NCBI GenBank assembly: GCA_965240465.1
Contig: OZ251219.1
Coordinates: 32,001 to 96,000, forward strand
Direction of reading: 5' to 3'
From: a bacterium
GTDB lineage: Bacteria; SAR324; JACQKK01
DNA length: 64,000 nt
Of this stretch, positions 1-64,000 are shown piece by piece. The position numbers were made by a program, and so were the translations under genes. The number at the start of each line of letters is the position of its first letter. Positions within the stretch are counted from its first letter, which is position 1. The notes beneath the pieces are model-generated. The model was not told the DNA's origin, searched no databases, and saw only the letters and a list, made by a program, of their open reading frames with translations.

Positions 1-359
1 CGCTCATGAGGATCTAGACGGTTATCAGCAAAGAGTACCTTCCAAATCATAATCAGTATTTCTTTTTTCTGGGATTGATCCAGGTGCTGGGAAAGAGTAT
101 GAGTGAATGGCCAAAGGTCTGATTGTTTTTCCATTTCCTGCTTGGCTTGTTGAATAATATCTTGAGCGAGTTGGGTATCAATTTGAAAATGCTGTTTTAA
201 GGATTTTAGGATAATCTGTTGTTCGGTATGAGTAATTTGCTCATCTATTTCTGCGGCTTCTAGCAAAATGGCACAAACTGCTAGGGGGAGGTTAATTTGT
301 TTTTCAGTTTGGCGGGTTATTTTTTCGGTTTTAATAATAGAGTTAATCCAGTTTTTCAT
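1..359 (-). CDS. TerB-family (tellurite resistance TerB-like) protein, runs off window start
   Basis: Not in the ORF track. Manual translation from ATG at 359: MKNWINSII...LAVCAILLEAAEIDEQITHTEQQII...SDLWPFT..L...EILIMIWKVLFADNRLDPHE, a TerB pattern. ATGA overlap with the TPR gene stop. Confidence 0.75.
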   Translation of the reverse strand, partial: MKNWINSIIKTEKITRQTEKQINLPLAVCAILLEAAEIDEQITHTEQQIILKSLKQHFQIDTQLAQDIIQQAKQEMEKQSDLWPFTHTLSQHLDQSQKKEILIMIWKVLFADNRLDPHE

Positions 360-2275
360 GATGAGCAATTTTGTTGAAGGAAGTAAAAAAAGCGGGGGCT
401 TATAACGGGAAGCTGGGGAGGAAGAAATAGTGGTCCTGGTGGTGGAGAGGGAATCAGGAGTAGCTGCGAGGGCATAGATTGTTGTAACAGGTTTTGTAGT
501 GAATTTGGCTGTTTGAGTATCCTTAATCTTTCAATAAATATTAGTTGCCAAGGAGATACTTGTGCTAGTCCTTTTTCCAGAGCGATGCGTGCTCGTTGTT
601 TTTGTCCTTGGGCAATTGCCGTTCGGCTAAGTCCTTCCAACAGCAGGGGACTATTGGGAAAGGTATTTAGGGCTCGGTTATAGATGCGTTGGGCTTCTTT
701 GACTTGTCCATTAAGATGTAGCATATCTCCTGCGAGACGGGCAGCCCATCCATTGGTAGCAGGACTACTAAGCCAAGGACGCAGAGTATTTTGTGCCGCC
801 CGAGTTTTCTTTAGAGCGTTCAGGGAAATAGCTTTTAATATCTGCACCCGCCAAGGAGAAATGCCAAACTCGGTATCCTGTGCTGATATTTGAGATACGA
901 TAGAAAGAGCTTTAGAGTATCGCTGAGTAAGGTATGCCTGTCTGGCACGGGCAAAGGCGACATGCTGAGGTGCTGCCAGTGGGCCGATAGAGTTAATAAT
1001 ATCCAAGGCTTGCTGGAAATCCTGTGCCAGAGTGGCTATATCAACCTTAAGCAGTAATGCTTGGGTGTCATGTGGTGAGTGTTCCAAGTACTTATTAAGA
1101 AGTCGCTGGGCTTCTTCTTGTCTAGATTGTTGGATCAGAACCGCAATACGCAACAAATGGGTGTGACGATGATTAGATTGAATTCTTTCAGCTTGTTCAA
1201 TCTCTACTTGGGCCAGGTCTGATCGGCTGAGAGATAGATAGACCGAAGCACGCATGCGTCGTACCCAAGGAGTTACCGCATGAGCCGAAGATAAATTAAG
1301 TACCTGCTGTAATGTTTCCAGCACTTGCTGAGGCTGATAAGCTTGCAATTGCATCTGAGCAAGTACCAAGCGGGTTTTTACATCTTTGGGATATTTTTGT
1401 TGTCGTGCTTGGAGCAGTGCTTGGGCGGATTTGGGTTGTCCTTTGCTTTGCGTTAACAAGGCTCTATAGATGTGAGAGTTAGTAAGTGAGACATCGGAAG
1501 CAAAGGAACTCTGTAGGGCTTGGGACAATTCCTGCCAGCGTGCTAGCCGCCAGAGGAAATCAATACGTTCTTCAATGAGGCATTGGCTATGAGGATATTT
1601 CTTTAATCCATCATCCAATATTTTCAGTGCCTGCTGCGACCTCCCATAAAGATGTTCCAAACGTGCCATTAGCACCCTAACCACAGGGCTCTCAGACAGA
1701 CCATTCAGGCGTGCCGAAGCCAAATACAGCTGACCGCTATCCAGAAGTATTTCTGCTAAGGCTTCATCCAGAGCAGAACGGCGGCCAGAATTAATTTCAG
1801 TTTGCTGCAAAATATTTTCCGCCTGTTGCCACTTACCTTGCTCAGCCAAAACGCTTCCTAGTAACAACCCTGTCTGCCAATCACGGGGAGAAACCACTAC
1901 CGCCTGTTCCAATATCTGTAGTGCCTGAATACTATACCCATTCGCTAACAAGGCTTGACCTAAAATAATCAAATTCTTGCCCTGTAGAGGTTGCAAACGC
2001 CAGGCAACTTCAGCCTCAGATTGGGCTTCCTGAGTATCTCCCCTTGCCAATAAAAACTGTGCCAGCTCCCTATGTGCTCTTGCACTACCAGCACGACGCT
2101 CAACCCTAGCACGCAAATTACGCTCCTCTCCCCCTACCTCAGCACCAAACTTTCCCTCCAACCCTGCAGTACCTGAACTACAACCCAGTGAACCAGCTAT
2201 CAACATCCCGAACGCTAGAAAAACACACGCCTGCCTAACTACCCAACATTTGACAATCAAAAACACACTCATCAA
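356..2275 (-). CDS. Tetratricopeptide-repeat protein, probable lipoprotein
   Basis: Repeated A/L/G helical TPR patterns; N-terminal hydrophobic segment ending SLGC. Confidence 0.75.
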   Translation of the reverse strand: MMSVFLIVKCWVVRQACVFLAFGMLIAGSLGCSSGTAGLEGKFGAEVGGEERNLRARVERRAGSARAHRELAQFLLARGDTQEAQSEAEVAWRLQPLQGKNLIILGQALLANGYSIQALQILEQAVVVSPRDWQTGLLLGSVLAEQGKWQQAENILQQTEINSGRRSALDEALAEILLDSGQLYLASARLNGLSESPVVRVLMARLEHLYGRSQQALKILDDGLKKYPHSQCLIEERIDFLWRLARWQELSQALQSSFASDVSLTNSHIYRALLTQSKGQPKSAQALLQARQQKYPKDVKTRLVLAQMQLQAYQPQQVLETLQQVLNLSSAHAVTPWVRRMRASVYLSLSRSDLAQVEIEQAERIQSNHRHTHLLRIAVLIQQSRQEEAQRLLNKYLEHSPHDTQALLLKVDIATLAQDFQQALDIINSIGPLAAPQHVAFARARQAYLTQRYSKALSIVSQISAQDTEFGISPWRVQILKAISLNALKKTRAAQNTLRPWLSSPATNGWAARLAGDMLHLNGQVKEAQRIYNRALNTFPNSPLLLEGLSRTAIAQGQKQRARIALEKGLAQVSPWQLIFIERLRILKQPNSLQNLLQQSMPSQLLLIPSPPPGPLFLPPQLPVISPRFFYFLQQNCSS

Positions 2276-3045
2276 GAACCTCTCTTCTTCTTTCTGGAAC
2301 CCAAATCCAGCCGTAATACTTTAGCTGATGGCCCCTCATTCCCTTGGTTATCCACCAATCGCAAAGTGAACTCCCTAGCTACCCGAGCATCACCAGCTAC
2401 GGGAAACCATACCCACTGTGTAGATGTCAGCGGTTCCTTGTTTAGTGGGCGTAAGGACCAATCCTCCCCTTCAGTACGACCATATATGTTGACCCTTACT
2501 CCTCCAATCAAATCATCAACTGGCTGCCAAAACAAGCGTATAGCATCCGTACCCAAACGTTTCAAACTTAAGTGCCACCTAGGAATATCCACCATCCCAA
2601 TAAATAACTTACTCTCTGTCTCAGCTCCAAATCCGCCGTTTAGCAACTTCACACTAACCCCCGCTTGCAAAGAATACTCCCGTACATCCCTCAAAAGAAC
2701 ATATCGCCAAGCACCTTCTGAACGATATTGCATCCCAGCTCCCCCCTTTGCTATCTCTACCCCATCTAATTCTCTAAACAGTTCTTCGGCTACCTTCCAA
2801 ATCTTCCGCTCTTTTGGCTCACACAGAACACATCCGCGTACTAGGTACTCCACCCTCAAACGCCACTCAGCTACTTCTGTACCAACAACCCTGCTCATTC
2901 GCCAACCTAGCCACATGTTGCCATCAATATGGCGTAACTCTACTTCCATAGGCCGTGGACGCAACAAAAAACCCGGCTGTGGTGCCAAATTAGAACCACA
3001 ACCTACCAATACTAACCACAACAATCCAAAGCCTAAATTCCTCAT
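2272..3045 (-). CDS. Hypothetical lipoprotein with a C-terminal FN3-like beta domain
   Basis: Lipobox LVGC; C-terminal LFW...VNIY...PLN..PL...VDNQGNEGPSA resembles FN3; 4-bp overlap with the next gene. Confidence 0.55.
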   Translation of the reverse strand: MRNLGFGLLWLVLVGCGSNLAPQPGFLLRPRPMEVELRHIDGNMWLGWRMSRVVGTEVAEWRLRVEYLVRGCVLCEPKERKIWKVAEELFRELDGVEIAKGGAGMQYRSEGAWRYVLLRDVREYSLQAGVSVKLLNGGFGAETESKLFIGMVDIPRWHLSLKRLGTDAIRLFWQPVDDLIGGVRVNIYGRTEGEDWSLRPLNKEPLTSTQWVWFPVAGDARVAREFTLRLVDNQGNEGPSAKVLRLDLGSRKKKRGS

Positions 3046-3067
3046 AAAAAACTCCCCAAACTATTAC

Positions 3068-3529
3068 CTAACCTTCCAATTCCAATAACTCGCGCTTAAG
3101 CCACAAACCTCCTCCATACCCACCTAACCCCCCATCCCATGATATTACCCGATGACAAGGCACTACCACAGATAATAAATTACTCCCCAACGCACCACCA
3201 ACAGCCCTAGCTCCACCATCGCAACCCAAACGACTTGCCAAGCTACCATAACTCAAGGTCTCGCCATACTTGATTTCAGCTAACTCCTTCCACACCCCAC
3301 AACGAAAATCACTCCCTTCCATCCGCAAGGGTAAATCAAACTCTCTTAGTTCTCCACTAAAGTACAAACTAAACTGACGCTCAACCGCTCTAAAAGACCT
3401 GGCATCACGCTCCCAATCATTAACCCGAGGTACCGTCATATGCTCCTTAAAACAAATACCCTCCACCTGCTTACCATCACCCCACGCCAATATTTCTCCA
3501 TAGGGACTATCAAACTGATGAAACAACAT
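3068..3529 (-). CDS. ogt: Methylated-DNA--protein-cysteine methyltransferase
   Basis: PCHRV active site, YGET.SY, ARAVG, GYGGG..K..LL.LE. Confidence 0.95.
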   Translation of the reverse strand: MLFHQFDSPYGEILAWGDGKQVEGICFKEHMTVPRVNDWERDARSFRAVERQFSLYFSGELREFDLPLRMEGSDFRCGVWKELAEIKYGETLSYGSLASRLGCDGGARAVGGALGSNLLSVVVPCHRVISWDGGLGGYGGGLWLKRELLELEG

Positions 3530-3718
3530 GGCATACTCCTTTAACTACATAATTGTTTGATTATAGAAGTCTGGTGAAATTTCAGGCATAAAACAATCAT
3601 GAACCACGAATTTATTGTTGTTTGTGAAAAATAAATCAGTTTCCTTGGCTGTGCTTAGCTGTGCTTAGCTATCTAGTATCAAGGAATATATGCTAGTAAC
3701 GATGCTCGGGGAGGGAGT

Positions 3719-5389
3719 GTGCATTTGCTGAGGCCAGAGATGGAAGCATCATTAGAGCAGAGATTATGCAAGCATTTTGCTCAAAGACGGCCCGTAGTGC
3801 TGATTATATTAGACGGCTGGGGCTTGGGAGATGGAGGATCGGGCGATGCCATACATCTTGCACGTACAACAGCCACTGATGGCTTAACTGAGCAATATCC
3901 GTACACTCAGTTATGGACGCATGGGCCTTATGTAGGCTTACCTACAGAGGGCGATTTGGGTGGATCTGAAGTTGGTCACATAACTTTGGGAGCAGGGAGA
4001 ATTATCCATCAGGGAGCTACACGCATCAAGCAAGCCTTAGCCGAGGGGGAATTTTTTGCTACCGATGCTGCAAAGCATATTTTTGTCAATTGCATAAAGC
4101 ATGATAGTGCTCTTCATTTATTGGGATTGCTATCGGACGGGAATGTTCATAGTCATATTGAGCATTTCATGGCTTTTGTGGATGAGGCTTCCAAGCGAGG
4201 AATCAGGCGATTATATGTACATGCCCTGCTTGATGGTCGTGATGTTCCATATCAATCGGCATTGAAATATATACAAATGATGGAGGATAAACTGCGGCGG
4301 GTCAGCGGCGAGAATAAAGATTACGCCATTGCCAGTGGTGGAGGGAGGGAACAAATCACGATGGATAGAGACAAGATTTGGTCACGAGTAGAGCTGGGCT
4401 GGCAGACACACGTGCATGGTCAGGCGAAATTACGCGTATCCTGTGCTGAGGAGGCAATTTTAGTTGCACGGAAGCAGCATCCAAAAATGATAGACCAAGA
4501 TTTACCTCCCTTTGTGGTGGTACGTAATGGCGAGCCCTTAGGAGCAATGCAAGATGGCGATTCAGTAGTGTTTATGAATTTTCGCAGCGATAGAGCAATC
4601 GAGTTCACCACCGCCATGTTGGCAGATGACTTTAACGGCTTTCAACGGGGAAAACGTCCCAAGGTGGTGTTCGGCGGCATGACCACCTATGATGAAGACC
4701 TTAACCTTCCTCCTCTTAACATGCAACCTCCTGTGAAGGTCAATAACCCGCTGGGAGACCGCCTCAGGAAGTTAGGACTAAGGCAGTTTCGGTTAGCAGA
4801 GACCCAAAAATTTCCTCATGTCACCTTCTTTTTTAATGGCGGTCGTCGGGAAGCATATCCTGATGAAACCTACACCCTCATCCCCTCTGACAAGCTAACT
4901 TCATTTATCCAAGCTCCCAAAATGCAAGCAGCCAAGATAGCCCAAGCTGCAACCTCGCTAATCGCCAGTGGGGAATATCAATTTGGGCTCGTCAATTTTG
5001 CCAATCCAGATATGGTCGGGCATACAGGCGATATATCTGCCGTCAAGCAAGCCGTCCAAGCTACCGATAATGCCCTCGGGCAAGTCCTGCAAGCCATTGA
5101 AAAAGCTGGTGGAACAGCCATCGTTACCGCAGACCACGGCAATGCTGATGAAATGCTGGTGATAAACCCTCGCACCCACCAACCAGAACCTAGCACCAAG
5201 CACTCGCTAAACCCTGTTCCTCTGTGGCTTTTTGATCCTATTACCAAAAATTCTCAGCGTCCTTATCAGCTACGACCCTGCCCGCCCGACAACCCCAATA
5301 CACTGGCTAATATCGCGGCAACTATTTTTATTATGCTAGCTGAAATGCCACCCAATGATCTGCATAACCACCTTTTCATCCTTAATTGA
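3719..5389 (+). CDS. gpmI: 2,3-bisphosphoglycerate-independent phosphoglycerate mutase
   Basis: IILDGWG, SEVGH, SDGNVHSH, LDGRD, AETQKFPHVTFFFNGG, NPDMVGHTG, TADHGNA. Confidence 0.97.
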   Translation: MHLLRPEMEASLEQRLCKHFAQRRPVVLIILDGWGLGDGGSGDAIHLARTTATDGLTEQYPYTQLWTHGPYVGLPTEGDLGGSEVGHITLGAGRIIHQGATRIKQALAEGEFFATDAAKHIFVNCIKHDSALHLLGLLSDGNVHSHIEHFMAFVDEASKRGIRRLYVHALLDGRDVPYQSALKYIQMMEDKLRRVSGENKDYAIASGGGREQITMDRDKIWSRVELGWQTHVHGQAKLRVSCAEEAILVARKQHPKMIDQDLPPFVVVRNGEPLGAMQDGDSVVFMNFRSDRAIEFTTAMLADDFNGFQRGKRPKVVFGGMTTYDEDLNLPPLNMQPPVKVNNPLGDRLRKLGLRQFRLAETQKFPHVTFFFNGGRREAYPDETYTLIPSDKLTSFIQAPKMQAAKIAQAATSLIASGEYQFGLVNFANPDMVGHTGDISAVKQAVQATDNALGQVLQAIEKAGGTAIVTADHGNADEMLVINPRTHQPEPSTKHSLNPVPLWLFDPITKNSQRPYQLRPCPPDNPNTLANIAATIFIMLAEMPPNDLHNHLFILN

Positions 5390-5408
5390 TAAAATAGGAG
5401 GCGTATAC

Positions 5409-6188
5409 ATGAATATCCTTGCTGGATTCTCACCGTTGTTTCTTAAGAATTCTTCCCTTACTCATATCACCCCTAAAAAACCCATCCACCTTGATTTTAC
5501 CGAAACACTCTTCAACCAACAACAAAACCTCTCCAATCTGTCCCATGGCTACCTGGGCAGAGGCATCGTACAGGGGCTGGCTACCGATGGACAACATGCC
5601 CTCCAAGTTTATTGGCTGATGGGTCGCAGCCCCAGTAGTAAGGCACGTCGTCTGATAATTGAAAAAAATAAGCTGCTTATCCAAGCAACAGGCAAAGCCG
5701 AACTCAAAAACCCCGAACTATTGCTTTATACCGCCATGAATAGCTGTAAAAAACACTGGATTGTTTCCAACGGTCAGCACACGGAATTACTCGTCCAAGC
5801 GGCACAGAAAAATACTCACCCCCTCACCGCCATCTACACCCTACAGCCCGAACCCGATGAACATCTCACCCCACGCATCGCCGCAGGCATAACCCCAGAA
5901 AAATCATGCTGGCTTGCTATCGTCCAGCAAGGAAAACACCGCACCTTCACTTATCCTCTACAACCCCAATCTGCATTCGGAATCCACACCTATCAACCTC
6001 CAACTACTCAACCCCTGACCCCTTTCTCCAAACTGCCACTACCCTTGCCTCTCCTAAATCCCCAAGAGACCGCCAATTCATACTGGCAACACCTTAACCC
6101 GAAAACACGCATTGCTCTCGCAGTACGTAGCATTAACCTTGAAAAACAAACCTGCCAATTCTACCTCCCAACTGATACCCAACCTTGA
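5409..6188 (+). CDS. PurO-like (archaeal-type) IMP cyclohydrolase family protein
   Basis: YLGRGI...YWLMGRS.SS..R, LLLYTA, IVSNGQHT, PEPD...TPRI, IHTY. Start chosen after AGGAGG at 5396. Confidence 0.75.
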   Translation: MNILAGFSPLFLKNSSLTHITPKKPIHLDFTETLFNQQQNLSNLSHGYLGRGIVQGLATDGQHALQVYWLMGRSPSSKARRLIIEKNKLLIQATGKAELKNPELLLYTAMNSCKKHWIVSNGQHTELLVQAAQKNTHPLTAIYTLQPEPDEHLTPRIAAGITPEKSCWLAIVQQGKHRTFTYPLQPQSAFGIHTYQPPTTQPLTPFSKLPLPLPLLNPQETANSYWQHLNPKTRIALAVRSINLEKQTCQFYLPTDTQP

Positions 6189-6248
6189 CAAAACCTTGAC
6201 AACAATGGTGAATATTGTTAGCATCCAGAAAAATCCTCAGTGGAGAGT

Positions 6249-6719
6249 ATGGGACAAAAAGCATCAAAAAATCACTCTAAGCCTTCGCTCTGGAGGCTAT
6301 CGGGAAGAAGAGTCCGACTGTCTTATTTGGGATGGAGCTTCTTAATCGGACTGGTTGCGGTCTTGATTGCTTTTTCGCTTGATGCCCTTTTTTTCCTCTT
6401 AATTGGTGGTCGGGCATTAGACTTTGCTGTGCTAATAGGCGAAGACCCTAGTATTTTCTTTAAGCTACTACTTGTTCCATCTTATTGGCTACAAATTTGC
6501 GTTTCGGCTCAGCGTTGCCAAGACATTGGTTGGCACAAAAAGTGGGCGTTCTTGCATTTGCCTTACTATGTTACTTACACCTTCGGTATCAGCCAGATTG
6601 CCGCTACCATCTTCAGTATTGTTGGTTTAATCCTTTGGCTAATTCTGATTTTCAAAGCTGGTGATAAAAGCAACAATCGTTATGGACCTCCGCCAGCAAA
6701 GCTGAGGAAAGCAGAATAA
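6249..6719 (+). CDS. DUF805 family membrane protein
   Basis: GRRVRLSY, QRCQDIGW, G....NRYGPPP; several hydrophobic helices. Confidence 0.8.
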   Translation: MGQKASKNHSKPSLWRLSGRRVRLSYLGWSFLIGLVAVLIAFSLDALFFLLIGGRALDFAVLIGEDPSIFFKLLLVPSYWLQICVSAQRCQDIGWHKKWAFLHLPYYVTYTFGISQIAATIFSIVGLILWLILIFKAGDKSNNRYGPPPAKLRKAE

Positions 6720-6749
6720 GCAAGGTTCACACCTAGCAGATTAGCGGTC

Positions 6750-6816
6750 ACTAATTAGGAGTACTATTAGGAATTACTAATTAGGAATTACTTATTAGGA
6801 ATTACTAATTAGGATT
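6750..6816. repeat. Degenerate 13-14 bp tandem repeat (ACTAATTAGGAATT, ~5 copies) overlapping the lon stop
   Basis: actaattaggagt actattaggaatt actaattaggaatt acttattaggaatt actaattaggatt read directly. Confidence 0.85.
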
Positions 6817-9267
6817 GGCAGGCACAGCTGTGTAAGGCTTAGATTGCTTGATTTGCTCTAATTTTTGCAGATCTAGTGCTATCTCTGTAGAACTGAGGGA
6901 CTGTGGCTGGCGTGTAAGGGCTATTGGTATAAGTTCGTCAAAGCGTTGGATGGGGATGATATTGATGTCATCTGTAATTTCTGCGGGGATGTCTTGCAAG
7001 TCTTTTTTGTTGTCGGCAGGGATGATAACGGTTTTGATATGGCTACGCTTGGCTGCCAATAGTTTATTTTTAATGCCTCCTACTTGGAGAATATTTCCTC
7101 GCAGAGTCATTTCGCCTGTCATGGCGACATCGTGTTTAACCGGTATTTTAGTCAGTGCACTCAACAGAGATGTCACTAGGGTAATGCCAGCAGAAGGGCC
7201 GTCTTTGGGAATGGCACCTTCGGGCAAATGGATGTGGAGGTCTGATTCTTTGAGGTACGAGCTCCAGATTCCAAATCTGTCAGCATAAGCCCGGATGTAG
7301 CTGATGGCGATTTCGGCAGATTCTTTCATCACATCACCCAGTTGCCCGGTGATGCGTCTTTTTCCAGATCCTGGCATCAGCTTGACTTCAGTGAGTATTA
7401 TCTCTCCACCGTCTGGAGTAACACCTAGGCCATTGGTGATACCCACTTCGTTTTTGCGGTCGCGATTGGCAGCGCGATACTTGGGGACACCGAGGTGCTT
7501 ATGTAAGTTTTTAGAAGTGATAGGAGCGATTTTATTGCTGTCTGTTTTAACAATACGGGTCACTATTTTGCGGAATATTTTTGACATTTCTCGTTCTAGG
7601 TTTCTTACTCCTGCTTCACGAGTGTAGTCGCGGACAACACTAAGGATGGCATCTTTGCTGAGTTGGATGTGTTCATCTTTAAGGCCGTGCGAAATAAGTA
7701 GTTTATTTTCCAGATGATTTTTAGCGATTTGGACTTTTTCAAGTTCGGTATATCCAGAGAACTTAACTACTTCCATGCGGTCTAACAGGGGAGCAACAAC
7801 GGTTTGAGTAGTATTGGCGGTGCAGATGAACAAAATTTGGGAGAGGTCATATTCCAGTTCAATGTAATGGTCCACGAATGATTGATTTTGTTCAGGGTCT
7901 AGTACTTCCAGTAGGGCGGATGAGGGATCCCCCATGATGCTGGAATAGAGTTTATCTATCTCATCTAGCAGAATGACTGCATTTTTGCTACCTGCCTTTT
8001 TCACTGCTTGTATAATTTTTCCAGGCATAGCACCAATGTAAGTACGGCGGTGACCACGAATCTCAGCCTCATCACGAATACCGCCCAGACTCATCCTCAC
8101 AAATTTTCTTCCCAAGGCACGAGCAATGGAACATCCCATAGAGGTCTTCCCCACCCCCGGAGGACCCACAAAGCAAAGGATGGGACCCTTTATTTTGCCT
8201 CGCAATTTGTTCACAGCCATGTATTCCAGCACGCGTTCTTTCACTTTTTCCAGTCCGTAGTGATCAGCTTCCAGTATTTCTTGAGATGCTTGCAGATCAA
8301 ATTTCTGCTTGCTTCGTGGTAATTGCCAGGGCAAAGATACCAGCCAATCTAAGTAATTTCGCACCACGCTAGCCTCTGCAGACAAGGGGGGCATCAAGCG
8401 TAGTTTCCGTAATTCGCGTTCGGCTGTTTCGCGGATGCTTTTGGACATCTTAGCAGCTTTGATTTGTTCTCCTATTTCCTCAAAATCTTCTTGCACTTCA
8501 GATCCATGTCCTAATTCGTTCTGAATGTTGCGTAGCTGTTCATTCAAGAATTCATTCTTTTGCTTTTTACCAATGTTATCGCGTACCTGACTGCGTAGCT
8601 TCTTTTGCATTTCAAGCACTATAGATTCTTGCTTTACAGCTTTAAGCACCATCTGCAAACGATTATAAACATCGTTCTCCTTAAGAATTTGCTGCTTTAG
8701 ATCCTGATCACACACCAACAAAGGTGCTAGTCTATCCGCCAGCTGGGCAGGGGGATAATCCAACAATAAATCTATATCAATCTCTTTGTTACTGCGATTG
8801 GCATCTAAATAGCGTCGTGCTACCTCCTTAGTCTCCACTGCCAGCTTTTCCAGAGCCTTCTCATCCCTGATAACCTCCTTTAACAAACGTACTTCTGCGT
8901 GATAACTATCACCATCAGAATCCATCCTCACCAATCCTGCCCGCTGATGAGCTTCAAACAAGGCTTTTAAATTTTTATTAGGCAGACGCATCACCTGCAA
9001 TACCACCCCTACCACGCCCACAGAAAATAAATCCTCCCGACGAGGATTATCATTGGTAGCATCGTTTTGGGTCACTACAAATATTCGCTTGTCGCCAGAT
9101 AGTGCTTCTTCCACAGCTTCTATAGAAAGCTTACGCCCAATATAAAAAGGGGCATTCGTACCAGGATAAATCACATCCTTACGCACGGGTAGCATGGGCA
9201 TACGCAGAATTTCTTTGCTGATACTCTCTTTGCTCATTAGATCTCTAGATCGTAGCCCGATGTGCAT
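6805..9267 (-). CDS. lon: ATP-dependent Lon protease
   Basis: GPPGVGKTS, LLDEIDK, HLPEGAIPKDGPSAG. True start may be the second Met (MSKES). Confidence 0.98.
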   Translation of the reverse strand: MHIGLRSRDLMSKESISKEILRMPMLPVRKDVIYPGTNAPFYIGRKLSIEAVEEALSGDKRIFVVTQNDATNDNPRREDLFSVGVVGVVLQVMRLPNKNLKALFEAHQRAGLVRMDSDGDSYHAEVRLLKEVIRDEKALEKLAVETKEVARRYLDANRSNKEIDIDLLLDYPPAQLADRLAPLLVCDQDLKQQILKENDVYNRLQMVLKAVKQESIVLEMQKKLRSQVRDNIGKKQKNEFLNEQLRNIQNELGHGSEVQEDFEEIGEQIKAAKMSKSIRETAERELRKLRLMPPLSAEASVVRNYLDWLVSLPWQLPRSKQKFDLQASQEILEADHYGLEKVKERVLEYMAVNKLRGKIKGPILCFVGPPGVGKTSMGCSIARALGRKFVRMSLGGIRDEAEIRGHRRTYIGAMPGKIIQAVKKAGSKNAVILLDEIDKLYSSIMGDPSSALLEVLDPEQNQSFVDHYIELEYDLSQILFICTANTTQTVVAPLLDRMEVVKFSGYTELEKVQIAKNHLENKLLISHGLKDEHIQLSKDAILSVVRDYTREAGVRNLEREMSKIFRKIVTRIVKTDSNKIAPITSKNLHKHLGVPKYRAANRDRKNEVGITNGLGVTPDGGEIILTEVKLMPGSGKRRITGQLGDVMKESAEIAISYIRAYADRFGIWSSYLKESDLHIHLPEGAIPKDGPSAGITLVTSLLSALTKIPVKHDVAMTGEMTLRGNILQVGGIKNKLLAAKRSHIKTVIIPADNKKDLQDIPAEITDDINIIPIQRFDELIPIALTRQPQSLSSTEIALDLQKLEQIKQSKPYTAVPANPN

Positions 9268-9565
9268 AATCAGCTAGATGGATTACCATCTCGCTGGCTA
9301 TATTTATACAAAGCCTCCGCCTTTATTAGACCCTAAATTCTGCTATATGGCAAGGCATATCAACATTTGTCTTGCATATGGTTAGAAACACCCCCATTCT
9401 GAGAGATTTTTTCAATAAAGCCTTATTTAACTCAAACGGTATGGCAAAGGAGTAGATAGAGTGGCATACTAGCAGTAAAAATTAACCGAGGATTCTCATC
9501 CACCGAATACCATCGGTCCCATTAAAGTAACCCCACGTATTCTGATCACCAGACTGATAATTGCA

Positions 9566-10480
9566 ATGCCTACCAAAAATACCCGCCGAAAAAGTAAAAT
9601 ACAAAAAAACACGCTAAAAAAAACCGAGTCCAAAGGTAGAGTAACCTCTAAAAAAGTACCCTCTAAACCCACTACCCCAAAAAAATCACTCAAGAAAAAT
9701 ACTGCCCCTCCCGTGGGCATCATTGCCGATAAATCACTCAAGAAAAATACTGCCCCTCCCGTGGGCATAATTGCTGATGCTGCCAAGCAGTTACTACCCA
9801 AGGCCAAAGCAGGTGATACCCAGGCACAACATGATTTAGGTATTCTTTACTATTTGGGAGAAGGAGGACTATTTAAAGACCCGCGTCAGGCTGCAAAATG
9901 GCTACGACAAGCTGCCGAACAGGGACATGTTAGTGCTCAACAAAAGATGGGGCTGCTTCACGACAGCGGACAGGGAGTCCCCTTAGACCGCAAACAAGCC
10001 GTTTTCTGGTACGAAAAAGCCGCCGCTCAGGGAGAAACTTCAGCCCAAATTCGCTTGGGCATGTTGCGTCACAACGATCGCGATGTTCCTCCCGATCATA
10101 AAGCAGCTGTTGCCCTTTATCAAGCAGCCGCAGAGCAAAACGTACCTGAAGCACAATTCAACCTGGGACTACTACATGAGCAAGGAATCGGCGTTCCTCA
10201 AAGTTATTCCACAGCTGCAAAATGGTATCTTCACTCAGCCCTACAGGGATTTCCCCTTGCTCAACACAATCTGGGTGCCATGTTCTTTGAAGGCCGAGGA
10301 GTAATAAAAAATAACACCCAAGCCTTCGTTTGGTTGGAACTCGCCGCCGCTCAAAAAGATGACAAATCCATCTGGCTAAAAAACGTTCTACTTAAAGTAA
10401 TCACTGATGAAGAACTCGCTGAAGCACAAAACCTGATCAAAAAAATGCTGTCTAGCCCAAAACATACCGATAAACAATAA
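9566..10480 (+). CDS. Sel1-like repeat protein with Lys-rich N-terminus
   Basis: About five AQ..LG..Y..G.GV..D...A..W...AA.QG repeats. Confidence 0.9.
   Translation: MPTKNTRRKSKIQKNTLKKTESKGRVTSKKVPSKPTTPKKSLKKNTAPPVGIIADKSLKKNTAPPVGIIADAAKQLLPKAKAGDTQAQHDLGILYYLGEGGLFKDPRQAAKWLRQAAEQGHVSAQQKMGLLHDSGQGVPLDRKQAVFWYEKAAAQGETSAQIRLGMLRHNDRDVPPDHKAAVALYQAAAEQNVPEAQFNLGLLHEQGIGVPQSYSTAAKWYLHSALQGFPLAQHNLGAMFFEGRGVIKNNTQAFVWLELAAAQKDDKSIWLKNVLLKVITDEELAEAQNLIKKMLSSPKHTDKQ
9683..9778 (+). repeat. 48-bp in-frame tandem duplication (KSLKKNTAPPVGIIAD x2)
   Basis: 9683-9730 vs 9731-9778 differ at two synonymous positions. Confidence 0.95.
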
Positions 10481-10583
10481 TAAGCCACTATTATTTTTTC
10501 CACATTTCGTGTATAGTTAACATGGGGGTAAGTACAGCGGATTTTTCCTTTCCGTGATTCTGATTTAGCTTTATGACTACAAA

Positions 10584-11834: not shown

Positions 11835-12063
11835 TACTTCGCTTTTTCTGGGTTTCAAAAAGATGTTAACCCTTGATGAAAGCCGTAGATAAAGCAAAAT
11901 TCCCTCTTCATCAATAATCATCATTTGCTAGGAACAGCCTCTTTCTGTAGGCACTACCATTTTTAGCAAACAATTCACTGAAATTGCTCTTGTAAAAAGG
12001 GTTCGGGATGAGGTAACTTTGGTCTGGTTGGGTAGTTGAGTTTATTTATTAAGGAGCTGTTAA

Positions 12064-12483: not shown

Positions 12484-12529
12484 TAAAGCCCGCGATAAAC
12501 ATCCATGAACGGCATACGAGGGCTTAGTA

Positions 12530-50007: not shown

Positions 50008-50079
50008 GAATAGGGCACTATAAAAAGGATAAAAATTGCTAATAAATTTTATTGAACAGGGGGAAAAGAAAAATTACCT

Positions 50080-53689: not shown

Positions 53690-53819
53690 TGCATAACCAA
53701 TATTGTTACACTAATAGCACCAGTCCCTTAGGACTATTTCGCTAGTTATTTTATATTGTCTTTAGGTTAAAACGTAGACTTACCTCAGGGTAATCCAAAC
53801 AGCTAAAGGAAGCTTATTT

Positions 53820-55400
53820 GTGAATCGTTTATCTGTGGAACTCAAGGTTGGCCTACTCATCCTCTCAGGGATGTTGATAACGGTATACGCTTCTGTGGCG
53901 GTGACGGGCTGGCGTCCTGGGCAGGGAGATACTTATACATTGTTTGCCAATGTTGAAAATGCTTCTGGATTGCTACCTGGTTCGCCAGTACAGGTAGCTG
54001 GAGTACGGGTTGGAAAGGTGGACGATATTTCCTTAGACGGCAATGAAGCCCGCATGAGGCTAAATTTGTTCAGTCGCTATGTTACTTATTCTGATGCCGA
54101 AATTTCCATTAGATCATTGGGGATTTTGGGCGATAAATATGTGAACCTAAATCTGGGCAGTAAATCAGCAACTCCGTTACCTCCTGGGGGTGAAATTTCG
54201 TTGATAGGTCCCAATACGGGATTAGAAAACCTAGTGAGTAGTATTAGTAATATTGTGTCTGATGTTAGTAATGTCACCAGTGCCCTGCAGGACTCGTTCG
54301 GAAGTAAGCGCGGCCGCAAAAGATTGGAGGCAGTTATGGAAAATATTTCTTTTGCCACTGAAAACATTCACAACATAACCAAAGTTACTAACCAACAAAT
54401 AGAATACATTTTATTCAATCTGCGTGAATTCACGGATAATGTTAACCGCATTTCCAAAGATAATGAAGATGACATCCGTCGTTTAGTAAAGGGATTCGCC
54501 ACATTTGGTGAACAACTGGCCAACATCTCTTCAGCCAATCGCAAGGAAATTGACTCTATCATTCAAAATGTAGAAATATTCTCAGGTGCCCTAGCTGAAA
54601 ACGGACCCAGTATCATACGCGATCTCCGCTTGTTGCTAACCAACAATCGCCAAAAAATTGCTGAAACTGTGGATAACATTAACAACGCTTTTATTCATCT
54701 GGAGGATGCCATGGTGCATGTGGAATCCATCTCAGCTAAGCTAGACGAAGGCGAAGGCACCTTTGGGCGGTTGATTAATGATGACACCACCGTCAACAAC
54801 CTAGACTCAGCTTTGTCTGGAGCTAGCAATTTCTTTGGAAGTACTGGTCGCTTAAAACTGGATGTAGGAGGCCATGTAGAGTACCTTACCCAGGCAGGTA
54901 GCTACAAATCCTTCATTGATCTGCGCTTGAGACCTTTGAAAGACCGCTTTTATGAAATTCAGCTGGTAAAGGACCCTAGAGGCTCCAAAAGAAAGAAGAC
55001 CACTTACACCACTGAAAACGAAGTCACCACTAAAAAGGAAGAAGAAACAACCACAGAAGATATGGAGCTATCTATCAGTATAGGCCAACGCTACTATGAT
55101 ACCATCATACAAGGCGGACTAATAGAAAACTCATTCGGTATCAACCTGCAACAACTATTTGGCCGCCGAGACCAATTCAGTCTGGGAACAAGCATTTGGG
55201 ACTTAGAACGCGATGAAGGAGCTCATCTCAAGCTATATGGTATCTGGCGTGCATTATCTAATACTTTCCTAATTGCAGGGCAAGACGACGTCATCAATAA
55301 CCAACCTGACCAAGTTAATCCTTTTGTCGGGGTAGGCATCCACTTCAATGAGGACTCTCTGCGTCCTTTGGTAGGCACCATAGGGGGGCTAGGACAATAA
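53820..55400 (+). CDS. MCE/MlaD family protein with long coiled coil and C-terminal beta domain
   Basis: GL..GSPV.VAGV.VG.V, GILGDKYV.L, GEGTFGRLIND. Confidence 0.9.
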   Translation: MNRLSVELKVGLLILSGMLITVYASVAVTGWRPGQGDTYTLFANVENASGLLPGSPVQVAGVRVGKVDDISLDGNEARMRLNLFSRYVTYSDAEISIRSLGILGDKYVNLNLGSKSATPLPPGGEISLIGPNTGLENLVSSISNIVSDVSNVTSALQDSFGSKRGRKRLEAVMENISFATENIHNITKVTNQQIEYILFNLREFTDNVNRISKDNEDDIRRLVKGFATFGEQLANISSANRKEIDSIIQNVEIFSGALAENGPSIIRDLRLLLTNNRQKIAETVDNINNAFIHLEDAMVHVESISAKLDEGEGTFGRLINDDTTVNNLDSALSGASNFFGSTGRLKLDVGGHVEYLTQAGSYKSFIDLRLRPLKDRFYEIQLVKDPRGSKRKKTTYTTENEVTTKKEEETTTEDMELSISIGQRYYDTIIQGGLIENSFGINLQQLFGRRDQFSLGTSIWDLERDEGAHLKLYGIWRALSNTFLIAGQDDVINNQPDQVNPFVGVGIHFNEDSLRPLVGTIGGLGQ

Positions 55401-55482
55401 CCTTCAGCAACCATCTGCACATTTATTCCACTTTCTCACCACTATCTTCTTCAACTAAAATAGCATTTGAAAAAAGATACGG

Positions 55483-55893
55483 ATGTCATCTTCACAACAC
55501 CCACCTACGCCTATAAGTATGGTGCTAAAAACCGTGCTGGATAGTCCAGAACACTACCGTACTCTCATCTTCCAGGTAATTTGTGACCACTGGAATACCA
55601 TCGTCAACAATCCAGATATTGTACGCTCCTCTGCACCCATTAAATTAGTCAAAGGTACTCTGTTTATAGGCTCTACCAACCCCACCTGGACATATGAACT
55701 CCAGCTCATGCAACCACACCTGTCGCAAGCGATCCAAAAACTATGTGGCTCGCAGAGCATCAAAGCATTTCGCTTCCAGCACGTTTCTCAACTACCTAAA
55801 AAAACCACTTCCCTGCCCACAGCAGTTGCCATCCAGCTTTCCAACTCCGCCAAAAAACACTTTCAGCAACTCCGAGTACAACTGCGTTCATAA
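55483..55893 (+). CDS. DUF721/DciA family protein
   Basis: W..IV......S.P.....GTL.I......W..ELQL....L...I pattern. Confidence 0.75.
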   Translation: MSSSQHPPTPISMVLKTVLDSPEHYRTLIFQVICDHWNTIVNNPDIVRSSAPIKLVKGTLFIGSTNPTWTYELQLMQPHLSQAIQKLCGSQSIKAFRFQHVSQLPKKTTSLPTAVAIQLSNSAKKHFQQLRVQLRS

Positions 55894-55988
55894 CTACCAA
55901 GTCAATGGTAAATTGTAGTCAACCATATTTTTGTAGAAAAAATAATGGCAAGGCCAATTGTACAAAGCAATGAGGCATTTTTTAATGA

Positions 55989-56828
55989 TTGTTGATGTTA
56001 GATGCACACACTCACTTAATAGACCATTCCTTTGCAAATGACCTTCCCCTGGTTTTGCAAGCTTCCGCTAAGGCAGGAGTACGAGGAATCGTGGTGGTCG
56101 GACAGAATGCAGATGAAAATGAGAAGGTGTTAAATTTGGTAAAGCAACAGGCAAGCAAGAACACAAATCTTCCTTTTTTGTTGCCTTTTCTGGGTTTCCA
56201 TCCCGATTTGTTTGCTGATTCCAAGCCTCTGCCTACCAAGCAAGATTGGGAGAGGGTAATCTTGCAAATTGAACATCACGCAAATGAGATAAAAGGAAGG
56301 GGAGGAATAGGCGAGGTAGGATTAGATGATTTTGTTTGCCGCACAAGGGAAAGAAGGCATCTGCAACGTGAAGCATTTGAGCAATTAGTACACGTGGCAA
56401 TTAATCTTGGACTGCCATTGAATGTTCATTCACGAAGCTGCGGCAAGCGGACTCTGGAACTGCTACTAAGGATGGGTGCTAAACAGGTACTGATGCATGC
56501 CTTTGACGGCAAAGCAGGACACGCAATGCTAGGAGCCGAAATGGGGTACGTTTTTTCGGTACCTGCAACGGTGATACATTCTGAACAGAAGCAAAGGATG
56601 GTAAGGGCATTGCCATTGCATGCCTTAGCCTTAGAAACCGATAGCCCTGCTTTAGGACCACTAGCAGGTGAACGCAATACTCCGATGAATGTATGTATTG
56701 TCCGGGATTGCCTAGCTAAATTAAAGCATCTCACTGCAACAGAAATAACCTATGTCACCACCCAAAACATTCAGCGAGTCTTTGCCCTCTCATTCCAAGG
56801 GAAACCAGACCAGCAAGCAACAAATTGA
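55989..56828 (+). CDS. TatD family nuclease
   Basis: DAHTHL, IGEVGLD, NVHSR, LMHAF, LETDSP. Confidence 0.93.
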   Translation: MLMLDAHTHLIDHSFANDLPLVLQASAKAGVRGIVVVGQNADENEKVLNLVKQQASKNTNLPFLLPFLGFHPDLFADSKPLPTKQDWERVILQIEHHANEIKGRGGIGEVGLDDFVCRTRERRHLQREAFEQLVHVAINLGLPLNVHSRSCGKRTLELLLRMGAKQVLMHAFDGKAGHAMLGAEMGYVFSVPATVIHSEQKQRMVRALPLHALALETDSPALGPLAGERNTPMNVCIVRDCLAKLKHLTATEITYVTTQNIQRVFALSFQGKPDQQATN

Positions 56829-63046: not shown

Positions 63047-63093
63047 GGTCTAATAAAGTATGCGGTTTAGATGTCTATGATTTTACAGATTTT

Positions 63094-63495
63094 TCACTTG
63101 TCTACTTTTGGGGTTGCCTTTGCTATTTTGGCACCAGTAGCTTGCTTGGCAGTGCCTCCCTTAGTAGTTGCCTTTTTGTTAGTCTCTTTTTCTGGAGAAC
63201 TTTTCTTAGGAGCATATTTTTTTTGATTAGATGCCCTTTGCGTTTGCATTTTTTTTAAAGTTTCCACTTTGGTAGAAACTTGTTCACTAGCAACTTTTGC
63301 ACCACTAGATACAGCTTCTCCTGTAACTTCTACCAGATGGCGTACCTTAAACAGCATCCCCTGTATTTGAGGAGTGTCCGTTATCTCTCTAATCTGATTA
63401 ATGCGATTCAATCCCAGTGATTTTAGGGTCTCTTTTTGCTGCTTGGCAAACCCGATAGCACTTTTTGTGAGCTTGATGCGAAGCTTTTTTTTCAT
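63094..63495 (-). CDS. rpmD: 50S ribosomal protein L30 with a long C-terminal extension
   Basis: KSAIG....K.T...LGL.RI......DTP...GM..KV.HLV followed by about 75 extra residues. Confidence 0.9.
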
Positions 63496-63530
63496 TGTTT
63501 GTAACTGTAATATAATGTAATAAAGGCAAC

Positions 63531-64000
63531 CTAAGTAGCAGATGTTTTAGCAGACTGTCGCAAACGATCTTCTGAAAAACCGCGTCGCTCTGCAATTTCC
63601 TTGAAAGTTTTTAATTCATAGAGTGCCCCCAGTGCGGCCTTCACGGAGTTATATGGATTGTTGCTACCCAGAGTTTTCACGCTGATATCGTGAATACCCA
63701 CCGCTTCCACTACAGCACGCAACACCCCAGATGAAATAATACCTCGCCCTGGCTGGCAAGGCTTAATTACAACCCTACTGGCACCAAAAGAAGCCCGCAC
63801 CGCATGCGGCACAGTCCGCCCATGAATGGCTACTTTTCTCATGTTGTGGGAGGCCTTTTGCACCCCTTTGCGTACGGCATCGGTGATTTCATTAGCTTTA
63901 CCTAGGGCACTCCCCACTTTCCCTTGACCATCTCCCACCACCACTAGAGCATTAAAACTAAACCGTCGCCCGCCCTTCACCACTTTAGCCACCCTATTAA
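63531..64000 (-). CDS. rpsE: 30S ribosomal protein S5, 5' end beyond window
   Basis: [29 protein letters not shown]. Confidence 0.98.

Follow-up and report, generated by a model that had tools for sequence, protein, structure and literature searches.

A GC-skew sawtooth in a SAR324 contig reflects a G-to-C ramp anchored to transcription units

The GC skew of the window analysed here, the whole 64,000-nt stretch of contig OZ251219.1, follows a sawtooth that our analysis confirms as real and that arises from a ramp anchored to transcription units: the sense strand of many operons is G-rich and C-poor early and C-rich and G-poor by the 3' end, and the ramp resets where the next gene starts on the promoter side. 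It acts on nucleotides, being present at all three codon positions, at fourfold sites, and in intra-operon spacers, and it is strong enough to shift amino-acid composition. We regard this as a strong and unusual pattern, and the literature searched yielded no bacterial precedent for an operon-anchored G-to-C ramp. It may be maintained by selection on nascent RNA composition, most plausibly read by the termination factor Rho, a reading to which we assign a probability of roughly 0.4.

The first-pass annotation had described a plus strand that repeatedly runs from G-rich to C-rich and resets abruptly; the description is correct, and its hand counts of G and C in 60-nt lines were reproduced exactly (10/10). 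The skew of 500-nt segments is highest at +0.392 (12501-13000) and +0.373 (1-500) and lowest at -0.628 (3001-3500) and -0.564 (28001-28500). When 400-nt flanks are compared at a threshold of 0.45, the window contains 9 upward (C-to-G) and 2 downward (G-to-C) jumps; the largest (0.94, at 28534) bears out the flip noticed earlier between two co-directional minus genes at 28465/28547. Twenty mononucleotide shuffles gave means of 0 upward and 0.05 downward jumps, and 71 of 80 control loci (1,288,020 nt; 9 were dropped for having <9 kb or >100 N) gave 13 and 18, or 0.65 and 0.89 per 64 kb. Among the 72 sequences, the window ranks first in skew range and all-position ramp and second in the SD of 500-nt skew (0.180; control mean 0.081) and the within-gene third-position ramp.

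Synonymous shuffling within genes was used as a further check. The third-position ramp was 0.164, against 0.037 ± 0.024 after shuffling, and the skew SD 0.180, against 0.162, with neither observed value reached in any of 200 shuffles. Within-gene shuffles retain an SD of 0.152-0.162 of the 0.180, and since most of the skew variance thus survives them, much of it lies between genes. There is no N in the window, and three of the nine resets are internal to genes that have Pfam matches on either side of the reset. The cumulative curve also has a mild negative trend over the whole window (mean skew about -0.065), which may be ordinary replichore skew.

The pattern is uneven, being strong in 1-32.4 kb and 50.6-56 kb, flat in 32.4-50.6 kb, and weak in 56-64 kb (Table 1). 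Total swing is 0.5-1.1 and changes little with tooth length between 969 nt and 6.3 kb. The tooth boundaries were drawn from the same data, so per-tooth p-values are post hoc; the slope of the flat stretch has p=0.21. The third-position ramp averages -0.064 in 13 translation-apparatus genes (positive in 5/13) versus +0.293 in the 38 other genes (positive in 29/38; Mann-Whitney p=0.0016). Exceptions to the ramp are the Sel1 gene, the RCC1 gene, and the tatD-to-ALAD operon (ALAD, delta-aminolevulinic acid dehydratase).

Table 1. Teeth, resets, and other features of the skew profile (positions in the window)
Feature	Position	Strand	Genes or content	Sense skew	Slope per kb	Remarks
Tooth 1	1..3548	-	ogt 3529-3068, lipoprotein gene 3045-2272, TPR gene 2275-356, terB-like gene 368-3	about +0.6 to about -0.3	-0.318	+ strand: first 400 nt +0.29, last 400 nt -0.52; lipoprotein gene product has lipobox-like N-terminus; terB-like gene extends beyond window edge
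Tooth 2	3548..6203	+	iPGM 3719-5389, PurO-like gene 5355-6188	+0.18 to -0.55	-0.344	Unbroken at iPGM/PurO-like junction (jump +0.08)
Candidate promoter-like site	6196..6224	+	TTGACA-17-TAGCAT, extended TG; 10/12 consensus matches			Coincides with reset at 6203 (cumulative-skew minimum), upstream of DUF805 gene
Tooth 3	6203..10530	mixed	DUF805 gene (+), convergent lon (-, 9267-6805), Sel1 gene (+)		-0.087	Sel1 gene without reset
Tooth 4	12000..15415	+	yajC-secD-secF, 75-aa membrane ORF 15145-15372	+0.37 to -0.41	-0.245	Ends at first base region of tRNA-Ser
Tooth 5	17320..23656	mixed	manC-like gene (+) converging with aroC-dnaJ-like-bamD-dprA (-)		-0.076	Smooth fall; no reset at convergent junction near 18830
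Tooth 6	23656..28559	mixed	VTT-domain gene (+) converging with dapD-arsP_2-DAO (-, from 28465)		-0.103	Partial resets at two downstream gene starts
Sharpest reset, jump 0.94	28466..28559	between minus genes	81-nt spacer, DAGK-like 3' end / dapD 5' end			Third-position jump +1.25
Tooth 7	28559..29528	-	DAGK-like gene alone	third position: +0.50 to -0.49	-1.016	Whole swing in 969 nt
Tooth 8	29528..32421	+	hemF, SLT transglycosylase gene		-0.184	Ends 117 nt into following permease gene
Flat stretch without sawtooth	32421..50624	mixed	ABC permeases, dxs, class II RNR, lpxD-dapA, rpsL-rpsG-fusA-tuf-rpsJ-rplD-rplW-rplB operon		-0.003
Tooth 9	50624..56049	+	649-aa membrane protein gene, mlaE, mlaD, dciA	+0.38 to -0.48	-0.099	Ends at reset 60 nt into tatD

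It had been proposed that the skew ignores coding strand, which proved to be a misreading. Because reverse complementation leaves a G-to-C ramp unchanged, a ramp running 5' to 3' on the sense strand produces the same plus-strand teeth in both gene orientations, all pointing one way. Read on the sense strand, G skew is higher in the first third of a gene than in the last for 19 of 25 plus-strand and 19 of 31 minus-strand genes. Nor are the anchors arbitrary sites, but transcription-unit starts: all nine resets are intergenic or no more than about 120 nt from a start codon, and no motif of at least 20 nt is repeated among them. At co-directional junctions with gaps <40 nt (n=16), the mean jump is -0.01; therefore, the ramp belongs to the unit and not to the gene. 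Convergent junctions are passed smoothly with no reset. The lack of a reset at the divergent lon/Sel1 junction, reported earlier, was found again (200-nt flanks at -0.10 and -0.38). Used as anchors, convergent junctions give an amplitude of -0.04 and an R2 of 0.016, and anchors having a 5' end an R2 of 0.09, which none of 500 random anchor sets reached. Promoter anchors placed by rule account for little of the variance (R2 0.09-0.24), with a weak term for the "unlicensed" promoter side (0.13 ± 0.06 at lambda 800).

The same ramp can be followed at sites that leave the protein unchanged. From the first to the last gene fifth (1-43 kb; 5,826 fourfold sites), G falls from 0.224 to 0.162 and C rises from 0.196 to 0.264, while A moves from 0.268 to 0.255 and T from 0.312 to 0.319. 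When sites are grouped into sextiles by local position-1+2 skew, fourfold GC skew climbs from -0.45 to +0.28, with pooled changes of 0.135 upward for G, 0.17 downward for C, 0.03 upward for T, and none for A. G/(G+C) increases in all eight fourfold codon families, and T takes over part of the lost C in six of them, so a C-to-T component is still a possibility. GC and AT skew correlate at -0.31 over all sites and at +0.17 at fourfold sites. Intra-operon spacers carry the local skew as well (14096-14155 at -0.57; 55401-55482 at -0.53).

Protein composition tracks the skew, as the first-pass annotation had noticed: compared with C-rich sense windows, G-rich ones use G, V, E, C, W, M, and R 1.8-4.2 times as often and P, T, N, Q, and H 0.31-0.53 times as often, though the windows were selected by skew and the ratios therefore show which residues carry it rather than an independent effect. 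In lon, third-position sense skew passes from +0.42 through -0.11 to -0.40. Its third-position ramp is 0.83, compared with 0.044 ± 0.124 (maximum 0.35) in 77 orthologs, and its position-1+2 ramp 0.163, compared with -0.061 ± 0.073, which suggests that the ramp is specific to this organism rather than to protein families.

Rho requires RNA that is C-rich, G-poor, and unstructured, and G-rich motifs inhibit it. The earlier idea of selection for C-rich Rho-loading tracts survives as the best explanation, though only in modified form. RNA polymerases that set out from a promoter, whichever way they go, would produce G-rich, Rho-resistant RNA, and those approaching one, by read-through from the upstream unit or by antisense transcription back into the 5' part of a unit, would produce C-rich, Rho-sensitive RNA. 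Promoters would thereby be insulated without intrinsic terminators, and densely translated operons, being shielded by ribosomes, would have no need for such composition. If this holds, message-strand composition may mark where transcripts continue or stop.

Regions where C exceeds G (C>G bubbles) of at least 300 nt number 64. Those on the sense strand lie late in genes (nucleotide-weighted mean relative position 0.63; 8,643 nt covered) and those on the antisense strand early (0.42; 19,818 nt), one example being the 2095-nt bubble at 26496-28590, antisense to dapD-arsP_2-DAO. Sense bubbles of at least 600 nt stop 54-186 nt beyond the stops of the PurO-like gene, secF, the SLT gene, and dciA. 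The accessible part of Nadiras et al. 2018 (PMC6144790) reports that Rho termination in vitro failed to occur in 28 of 32 tested regions lacking C>G bubbles, that it occurred on all tested templates with bubbles >78 bp, and that G-rich motifs correlate inversely with termination. The earlier impression that intrinsic terminators are few agrees with our scans of 1-60000, in which only 6 of 73 terminator-like hits follow a same-strand stop by no more than 150 nt, 5 of these inside the next gene and the sixth with a 5-bp stem; no convincing intrinsic terminator was found at gene ends in these scans.

We counted the missing ramp in the 13 translation-apparatus genes and its presence in others as a fit to Rho, but strong codon and protein constraint could explain the flat ribosomal-protein genes equally well. 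Other points tell against Rho. About 80 nt of C-rich RNA suffices, so a graded, kilobase ramp with a protein-level cost looks like overkill. Termination selection alone does not predict a linear gradient with a length-independent swing, a shape classically taken as the mark of a mutational polarity gradient. The small variance explained by promoter anchors, the weak "unlicensed" term, the possible C-to-T component, and the genes that depart from the ramp count against it as well. Most convergent 3' ends are not C-rich, though termination is needed there too, and the 64-kb window contains no rho gene and no direct sign of Rho action.

The main rival is a promoter-anchored mutational asymmetry, in which transcription, including divergent and antisense transcription from promoters, would expose the non-template strand or direct repair; net transcription polarity would pass from +1 to -1 between adjacent promoters, and composition would follow, as a kilobase-scale analogue of human skew N-domains. 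This is possible, although we lean against it. It accounts for the abrupt upward jumps, near-linear fall, and similar swing at any length, a shape described for N-domains in the available portion of PMC3320577, and for resets at promoter-side gene starts with none at convergent junctions. The continuation of the skew through non-coding spacers, the partial replacement of lost C by T, and the negative all-site GC/AT correlation also agree with it. The pooled fourfold change, on the other hand, exchanges purine for pyrimidine, which transition-type deamination is unable to yield, and the GC/AT correlation at those sites is not negative. Ribosomal-protein and EF genes, expected to be the most transcribed, have no ramp, and we know of no bacterial process with a strand-asymmetric G:C-to-C:G bias this large. 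Since G and C trade places at fourfold sites while pooled A and T hardly move, the strand-asymmetric mutation or repair put forward in the first-pass annotation is not favoured in a deamination form. Selection on RNA or hybrids without Rho shares the anchoring and fourfold-site evidence with the Rho reading, and an adaptive C-avoidance hypothesis has been proposed for a similar fungal gene pattern (PMC3315797, as far as the accessible text goes). Candidates would include message halves each free of local G-C pairing, long-range pairing of a G-rich 5' with a C-rich 3' half, R-loop control (G-rich RNA, C-rich template) near promoters, and RNA polymerase pacing by nucleotide supply, an idea put forward for fungi. 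Such selection predicts promoter resets and smooth convergent junctions no better than the Rho model does, canonical G-quadruplex motifs number 0 on the plus and 2 on the minus strand, and we consider it rather improbable.

A replication-type version of the site-anchored process suggested in the first-pass annotation, in which origins, or else fixed sites of priming or repair, recur at intervals of a few kb and resets are origin-like C-to-G switches, is very unlikely. Upward jumps with a linear fall are indeed the origin signature in human N-domains (PMC3320577, in the part available), and the mild overall negative trend is as in a single replichore. However, the resets sit at gene starts and not at arbitrary sites, they share no repeat, the ramp is missing from 18 kb including the ribosomal-protein operon, AT skew is uncoupled at fourfold sites, and fixed Okazaki priming would be expected to give one-strand decay to baseline, not a symmetric sign change. 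We give the least credence of all to translation- or protein-level selection (codon ramp, domain composition) or an artefact (chimeric assembly, horizontally acquired gene mosaic). The large between-gene variance left by shuffling speaks for it, and the Sel1 and RCC1 exceptions could be recent acquisitions. Against it, start codons within operons show no reset, spacers follow the ramp, synonymous sites carry it, conserved lon has it and the 77 orthologs do not, and three resets fall inside intact genes of a window free of N.

Known systems resemble the pattern only in part. Replichore skew switches once at each origin or terminus, amounts to a few percent, and goes with synonymous sites enriched in G+T; the statistic is the same and C-to-G switches resemble origins, but here there are 9 switches per 64 kb with swings of about 1.0. 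In fungal genes, as far as the accessible text describes them, skew also changes sign along the transcribed unit, affects fourfold sites, reaches beyond the coding sequence, and goes with different amino-acid use at the two gene ends, and the authors are likewise undecided between mutation and selection. The fungal polarity, however, is opposite (the coding strand favours C at the 5' end and G at the 3' end), the fungal genes are eukaryotic Pol II genes whereas bacterial operons are the unit here, and single genes here reach a far larger amplitude (third-position skew up to +0.8). Rho utilisation sites, in the same excerpt of PMC6144790, share the C-rich, G-poor sense tracts at unit 3' ends just past stops, the G-richness where termination would be harmful, and the long C-rich tracts on antisense transcripts. 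The rut regions known so far span about 80 nt and are scattered (E. coli has about 2.2 bubbles of at least 80 bp per kb), unlike the 0.6-2.1 kb bubbles and graded unit-wide ramp here.

Human N-domains, as the available text of PMC3320577 presents them, likewise have abrupt upward jumps flanking a segment that falls linearly through zero with a mostly length-independent swing, but they are megabase-sized, have jumps at replication initiation zones, are attributed to replication fork polarity, and combine TA and GC skew, whereas teeth here are 1-8 kb, with jumps at gene starts and only G/C affected at fourfold sites. Szybalski's rule, or purine loading, matches the G-rich (purine-rich) sense strand over the 5' part of units, but the classical rule, summarised with transcription-coupled asymmetry in bacteria in PMC3269016, has a single sign per gene, whereas the skew here changes sign on the way to the 3' end and is reset at the following promoter. 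As a separate observation, long antisense C>G bubbles also occur in the Firmicute control loci.

Skew, expressed as (G-C)/(G+C), rises and falls repeatedly along the + strand of the window, and all ten of the 60-nt G and C counts from which the first-pass annotation had described a kilobase-scale sawtooth were reproduced exactly. In 500-nt windows, the highest values were +0.39 and +0.37 and the lowest -0.63 and -0.56. Using 400-nt flanks and a threshold of 0.45, we found nine abrupt C-to-G jumps (here called resets) and two G-to-C jumps in 64 kb, and mononucleotide shuffles of the window gave essentially none at the same criterion.

As controls, we used 71 of 80 loci around lon orthologs from many phyla, among the matches listed; the other nine were left out because they were shorter than 9 kb or contained more than 100 N. 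Together, these 71 loci had 13 upward and 18 downward jumps in 1.29 Mb. Among the 72 sequences, the window ranks first for skew range and for the all-position ramp (the fall from G-rich to C-rich skew along a unit, 5' to 3'), and second both for the within-gene third-position ramp and for the standard deviation of skew, which is 0.180 against a control mean of 0.081. The third-position ramp also exceeds codon-shuffled controls: when synonymous codons were swapped within genes, it fell from 0.164 to 0.037 +/- 0.024, and none of 200 shuffles matched the observed value. The sawtooth is confirmed and lies far outside the control range, in a sample consisting of a single 64-kb window with the borders of the teeth (the declining + strand segments) taken from the same data. 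It is strong at 1-32 kb and 50.6-56 kb, flat at 32.4-50.6 kb, and weak at 56-64 kb.

By gene content, the window is an ordinary bacterial chromosome. ORFs were taken as the longest non-overlapping set and named using Pfam and NCBIfam, and operon and promoter positions were inferred from gene layout. The genes include ogt, iPGM, a PurO-like gene, lon, yajC-secDF, aroC, dapD, hemF, and dxs, together with a class II ribonucleotide reductase (RNR) gene, lpxD, dapA, mlaED, dciA, the rpsL-to-rplB and rpsE-to-adk ribosomal clusters, and others.

The sawtooth had been described as ignoring the coding strand, and here the first reading fails, whereas the sawtooth itself and the Rho idea offered with it are retained, the latter in modified form as our favoured explanation. 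Read along the coding strand, G skew is higher over the first third than over the last third in 19 of the 25 plus-strand genes and in 19 of the 31 minus-strand genes. A G-to-C ramp is invariant under reverse complementation; therefore, a sense-strand 5'-to-3' ramp looks identical on the + strand in either gene orientation. Coding strand entered as a constant term gives an R2 of only 0.07.

At all nine resets, the cumulative-skew minimum is either intergenic or no more than about 120 nt from a start codon; four of the nine lie at divergent junctions, four at co-directional junctions, and one at the first bases of tRNA-Ser. The reset at 6203 falls within a promoter-like site (TTGACA-17-TAGCAT). 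Tight co-directional junctions do not reset, the mean jump being -0.01 where the gap is below 40 nt (n = 16), as along ogt, the lipoprotein gene, the TPR gene, and terB, or from iPGM to the PurO-like gene; at the secD-secF junction, with a gap of 60 nt, the jump is -0.03. Convergent junctions also lack resets and, used as anchors, yield an amplitude of -0.04 and an R2 of 0.016. The unit of the ramp is the operon, not the gene.

A linear sawtooth drawn between 5'-end junctions chosen by rule (gaps of at least 50 nt) has an R2 of 0.09, which none of 500 random anchor sets exceeded. This value is low because gap size predicts promoter-bearing junctions poorly: many of the true resets occur across short gaps (37-95 nt), and many long gaps have none. 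Fixed-length decay from rule-based promoter anchors gave an own-promoter term of 0.30 +/- 0.04 (lambda 800, 1-43.7 kb), with an R2 of only 0.17-0.24. Within operons, the upstream gene is more G-skewed than the downstream one in only 10 of 16 pairs, and the mean difference at third positions is +0.116 versus +0.004 in 269 control pairs, a trend in line with an operon-wide ramp that is suggestive, not decisive. Every tooth swings by about 0.5-1.1 (slope times length, 0.48-1.13) over lengths from 969 nt to 6.3 kb (6336 nt), so that slope is inversely proportional to length. No shared repeat of at least 20 nt was found at the resets. In summary, the ramp takes promoter-side gene starts as its anchors, spans the operon, acts at the nucleotide level, and is specific to G and C. 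The Sel1-repeat and RCC1-repeat genes are its clearest exceptions and may be recent arrivals or belong to another regime.

Fourfold-degenerate sites carry the ramp as well. Within 1-43 kb, sense G falls from 0.224 in the first fifth of genes to 0.162 in the last and C rises from 0.196 to 0.264, with A and T changing by no more than 0.013. Across sextiles of neighbouring position-1+2 skew, fourfold GC skew covers the range -0.45 to +0.28, with AT skew confined to -0.05 to -0.15; computed per kb, the two correlate at +0.17. When the eight fourfold families are taken separately, G/(G+C) and G rise in all eight and T in six, and in families where a third-position G forms CpG, T takes up part of the C that is lost and is a more frequent replacement than G. 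NCG codons are rare: in C-rich surroundings they make up 0.05-0.07 of their family. A deamination signature, in which T should rise with G at fourfold sites, was considered and rejected, pooled A and T being nearly flat; the pooled change is a purine-for-pyrimidine swap, an outcome that deamination of cytosine cannot yield by itself. Intra-operon spacers carry the local skew. Protein composition follows it too, as first proposed, with G, V, E, W, and R opposed to P, T, Q, H, and N, as seen at both termini of the TPR protein, of DapD, and of the PurO-like protein.

The lon gene allows comparison with 77 orthologs. Its third-position ramp is 0.83 (orthologs 0.044 +/- 0.124, maximum 0.35) and its position-1+2 ramp 0.163 (orthologs -0.061 +/- 0.073, maximum 0.135); the ramp belongs to the organism rather than to protein families. 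The nearest lon among the matches listed, from a SAR324 MAG, is 58% identical and lies in a flat locus (absolute skew at most 0.12), where lon is the sole window gene with a syntenic match. A cluster look-up placed the nearest SecY clusters mostly in Thermodesulfobacteriota; for taxonomy, the lon and SecY matches are leads only. In the two translation-apparatus operons, the 13 genes average a third-position ramp of -0.064 (5 of 13 positive), whereas the other 38 genes of at least 450 nt average +0.293 (29 of 38 positive; Wilcoxon p=2e-6), and the two groups differ (Mann-Whitney p=0.0016).

Several known asymmetries resemble this pattern in part. Replichore GC skew keeps one sign per replichore and enriches G and T together at synonymous sites, whereas here the sign changes in every tooth (nine jumps up, two down) and GC skew varies with AT skew near constant. 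Szybalski purine loading and transcription-coupled asymmetry hold one sense-strand sign along a whole unit; in the window, sense skew is positive at the 5' side and reverses to -0.3 to -0.55 at many 3' ends. The closest match in content is the gene-end skew of fungi, which, in the portions of the source drawn on here (PMC3315797), likewise has opposite signs at the two ends and involves fourfold sites, non-coding flanks, and amino acids; that pattern, however, concerns Pol II genes, and its coding strand has a C bias at the 5' end and a G bias at the 3' end, the reverse of ours. In shape, the closest are human skew N-domains, described in the excerpted text (PMC3320577) as two upward jumps bordering a linear fall through zero, as in the window, but these are megabase-sized, about 1000 times larger than the 1-8 kb seen here, and their jumps are replication initiation zones rather than gene starts. 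Our searches of the open-access literature turned up no description of an operon-scale skew ramp in a bacterium. We rate the ramp as within a known class, transcription-linked strand asymmetry, and not as categorically new.

The explanation we favour, at a probability of roughly 0.4, is selection on nascent-RNA composition as read by Rho. According to the sections of Nadiras et al. 2018 (PMC6144790) relied on here, Rho termination needs an uninterrupted region of about 78 nt in which C exceeds G (a C>G bubble), regions lacking a bubble hardly ever terminate in vitro (28 of 32 tested gave no termination), and G-rich motifs work against it. By the bubble definition given there, the window contains 64 bubbles of at least 300 nt. 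Those in sense orientation sit in the later part of genes (mean relative position 0.63) and antisense ones in the earlier part (0.42), the latter being more than twice as extensive; the longest reaches 2.1 kb, whereas the known Rho bubbles, the nearest parallel in proposed function, are usually some 80 nt long and scattered. At four unit-final genes (the PurO-like gene, secF, the SLT gene, and dciA), sense bubbles of 618-752 nt end 54-186 nt past the stop codon; these are uninterrupted non-template C>G regions longer than the 78-80 nt or so that a Rho-dependent terminator would have upstream of or across its termination zone. Given how C-rich these tracts are, YC dimers at suitable spacing and weakly structured RNA are trivially likely within them. 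No rho gene was named by Pfam or NCBIfam within the 64-kb window. The scarcity of intrinsic terminators noticed at first sight held up: 73 weak matches occur in 1-60 kb, none convincing, and of the six within 150 nt past a same-strand stop, five are inside the next gene.

Under selection through Rho, RNA leaving a promoter would be G-rich and Rho-proof, RNA heading toward a promoter from either side would be C-rich and serve as Rho-bait, and densely translated operons, shielded by ribosomes, would need no ramp. Such a rule would produce the reverse-complement symmetry, resets only where a promoter is present with smooth passage at convergent junctions, the placement of the strongest C-rich 3' ends immediately before co-directional promoters, and the absence of the ramp from densely translated operons. 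A kilobase-long graded ramp nevertheless goes far beyond the needs of a rut site, and its linear, constant-swing shape is the classic sign of a mutational polarity gradient; both count against Rho. That shape and the graded excess make promoter-anchored, possibly bidirectional, transcription-associated mutation bias the main rival, with human N-domains, in the parts of PMC3320577 used, as a parallel. We consider it rather unlikely, given a transversion-like spectrum and the flatness of highly expressed operons. Some other selection at the RNA level is less probable again; for G-quadruplexes, the two strands of the window hold 0 and 2 G3-type motifs.

Replication initiating at the jumps would fit an N-domain-like outline, but with all nine at gene starts, such a process is very improbable. 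Even less credit goes to a translational, protein-level, or artefactual origin: a translational codon ramp would restart at each start codon and be confined to coding sequence, whereas the 16 tight junctions show no such restart (mean -0.01) and spacers share the skew. Returning to Rho, the fuller proposition is tentative and somewhat doubtful: that in this Gram-negative lineage unit boundaries may be encoded as kilobase-scale G-to-C ramps, outgoing RNA Rho-proof and incoming RNA Rho-bait, which largely replace intrinsic terminators and impose an amino-acid gradient by position in the operon.

If the ramp is genome-wide, operon boundaries and promoters could be predicted in this lineage from composition alone, and the genome would serve as a natural experiment on the extent to which coding sequence can be reshaped by termination signals or by transcription-linked mutation; even lon, though conserved, falls well beyond the range of its 77 orthologs. 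The ramp would also give bacteria a parallel to the gene-end skews of fungi, which are unexplained, and bacterial genetics, Rho inhibitors, and mutation-accumulation lines could then settle the fungal question of mutation versus selection. One should also be aware that the skew leaves long antisense open frames and low-complexity protein ends, which can lead gene callers astray, as well as tools that detect horizontal transfer or replication origins by composition.

Coordinates of individual features within the window
Feature	Position	Strand	Remarks
Lipoprotein gene	2272-3045	-	N-terminus resembles lipobox signal
Open frame, 240 aa	2366-3088	+	Antisense to lipoprotein gene
PurO-like protein	5355-6188		About 65 extra N-terminal residues beyond family model
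22-nt copies, four	6739-6814		Between convergent DUF805 and lon; register-matched, spacings 26, 14, 14 nt
Sel1-repeat and RCC1-repeat genes	9566-11834		Third-position sense skew about -0.33 to -0.35 from start to end; 48-nt tandem duplicate (96% identical) in Sel1 gene
Hydrophobic ORF, 75 aa	15145-15372	+	Begins at secF stop codon; overlooked by longest-ORF rule
Direct repeat, 86 nt, 99% identical	15465-15550 and 16213-16298		3' half of tRNA-Ser(CGA) plus 45 nt downstream
Basic ORF, 83 aa	15751-16002		In the ~660 nt between 86-nt repeat copies
ORF with acylphosphatase domain	24063-24683	+	Domain at residues 120-196; overlooked by longest-ORF rule
DapD	27365-28465		About 110 extra N-terminal residues beyond family model
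25-nt units, three	41343-41417		Non-coding spacer upstream of class II ribonucleotide reductase gene
Ribosomal-protein clusters, rearranged	43760-50451 and 60477-63998
Tandem duplication	59312-59611 / 59685-59984		91% identical, 373-nt spacing, two 119-aa ORFs
L30	63094-63495		133 aa; family model 55 residues

The 240-aa antisense frame is open because the C-rich strand lacks stop codons. An Rfam scan returned tRNA-Ser and its antisense echoes and nothing else, with no riboswitch at the 22-nt or 25-nt repeats, and the two 119-aa ORFs matched no Pfam or NCBIfam family. The 86-nt repeat pair resembles the trace that a small element would leave on integrating at tRNA-Ser. In the ribosomal clusters, rpsJ is followed directly by rplD, without rplC; the rpsL-to-rplB cluster ends after rplB beside convergent dapA, and the rpsE-rpmD-rplO-secY-adk part lies 16 kb apart from it. 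A 649-aa protein resembles O-antigen-ligase-like clusters in a cluster look-up, a lead only. Judging from the 75-aa ORF, the C-rich tract after secF is probably coding and not a 3' UTR.
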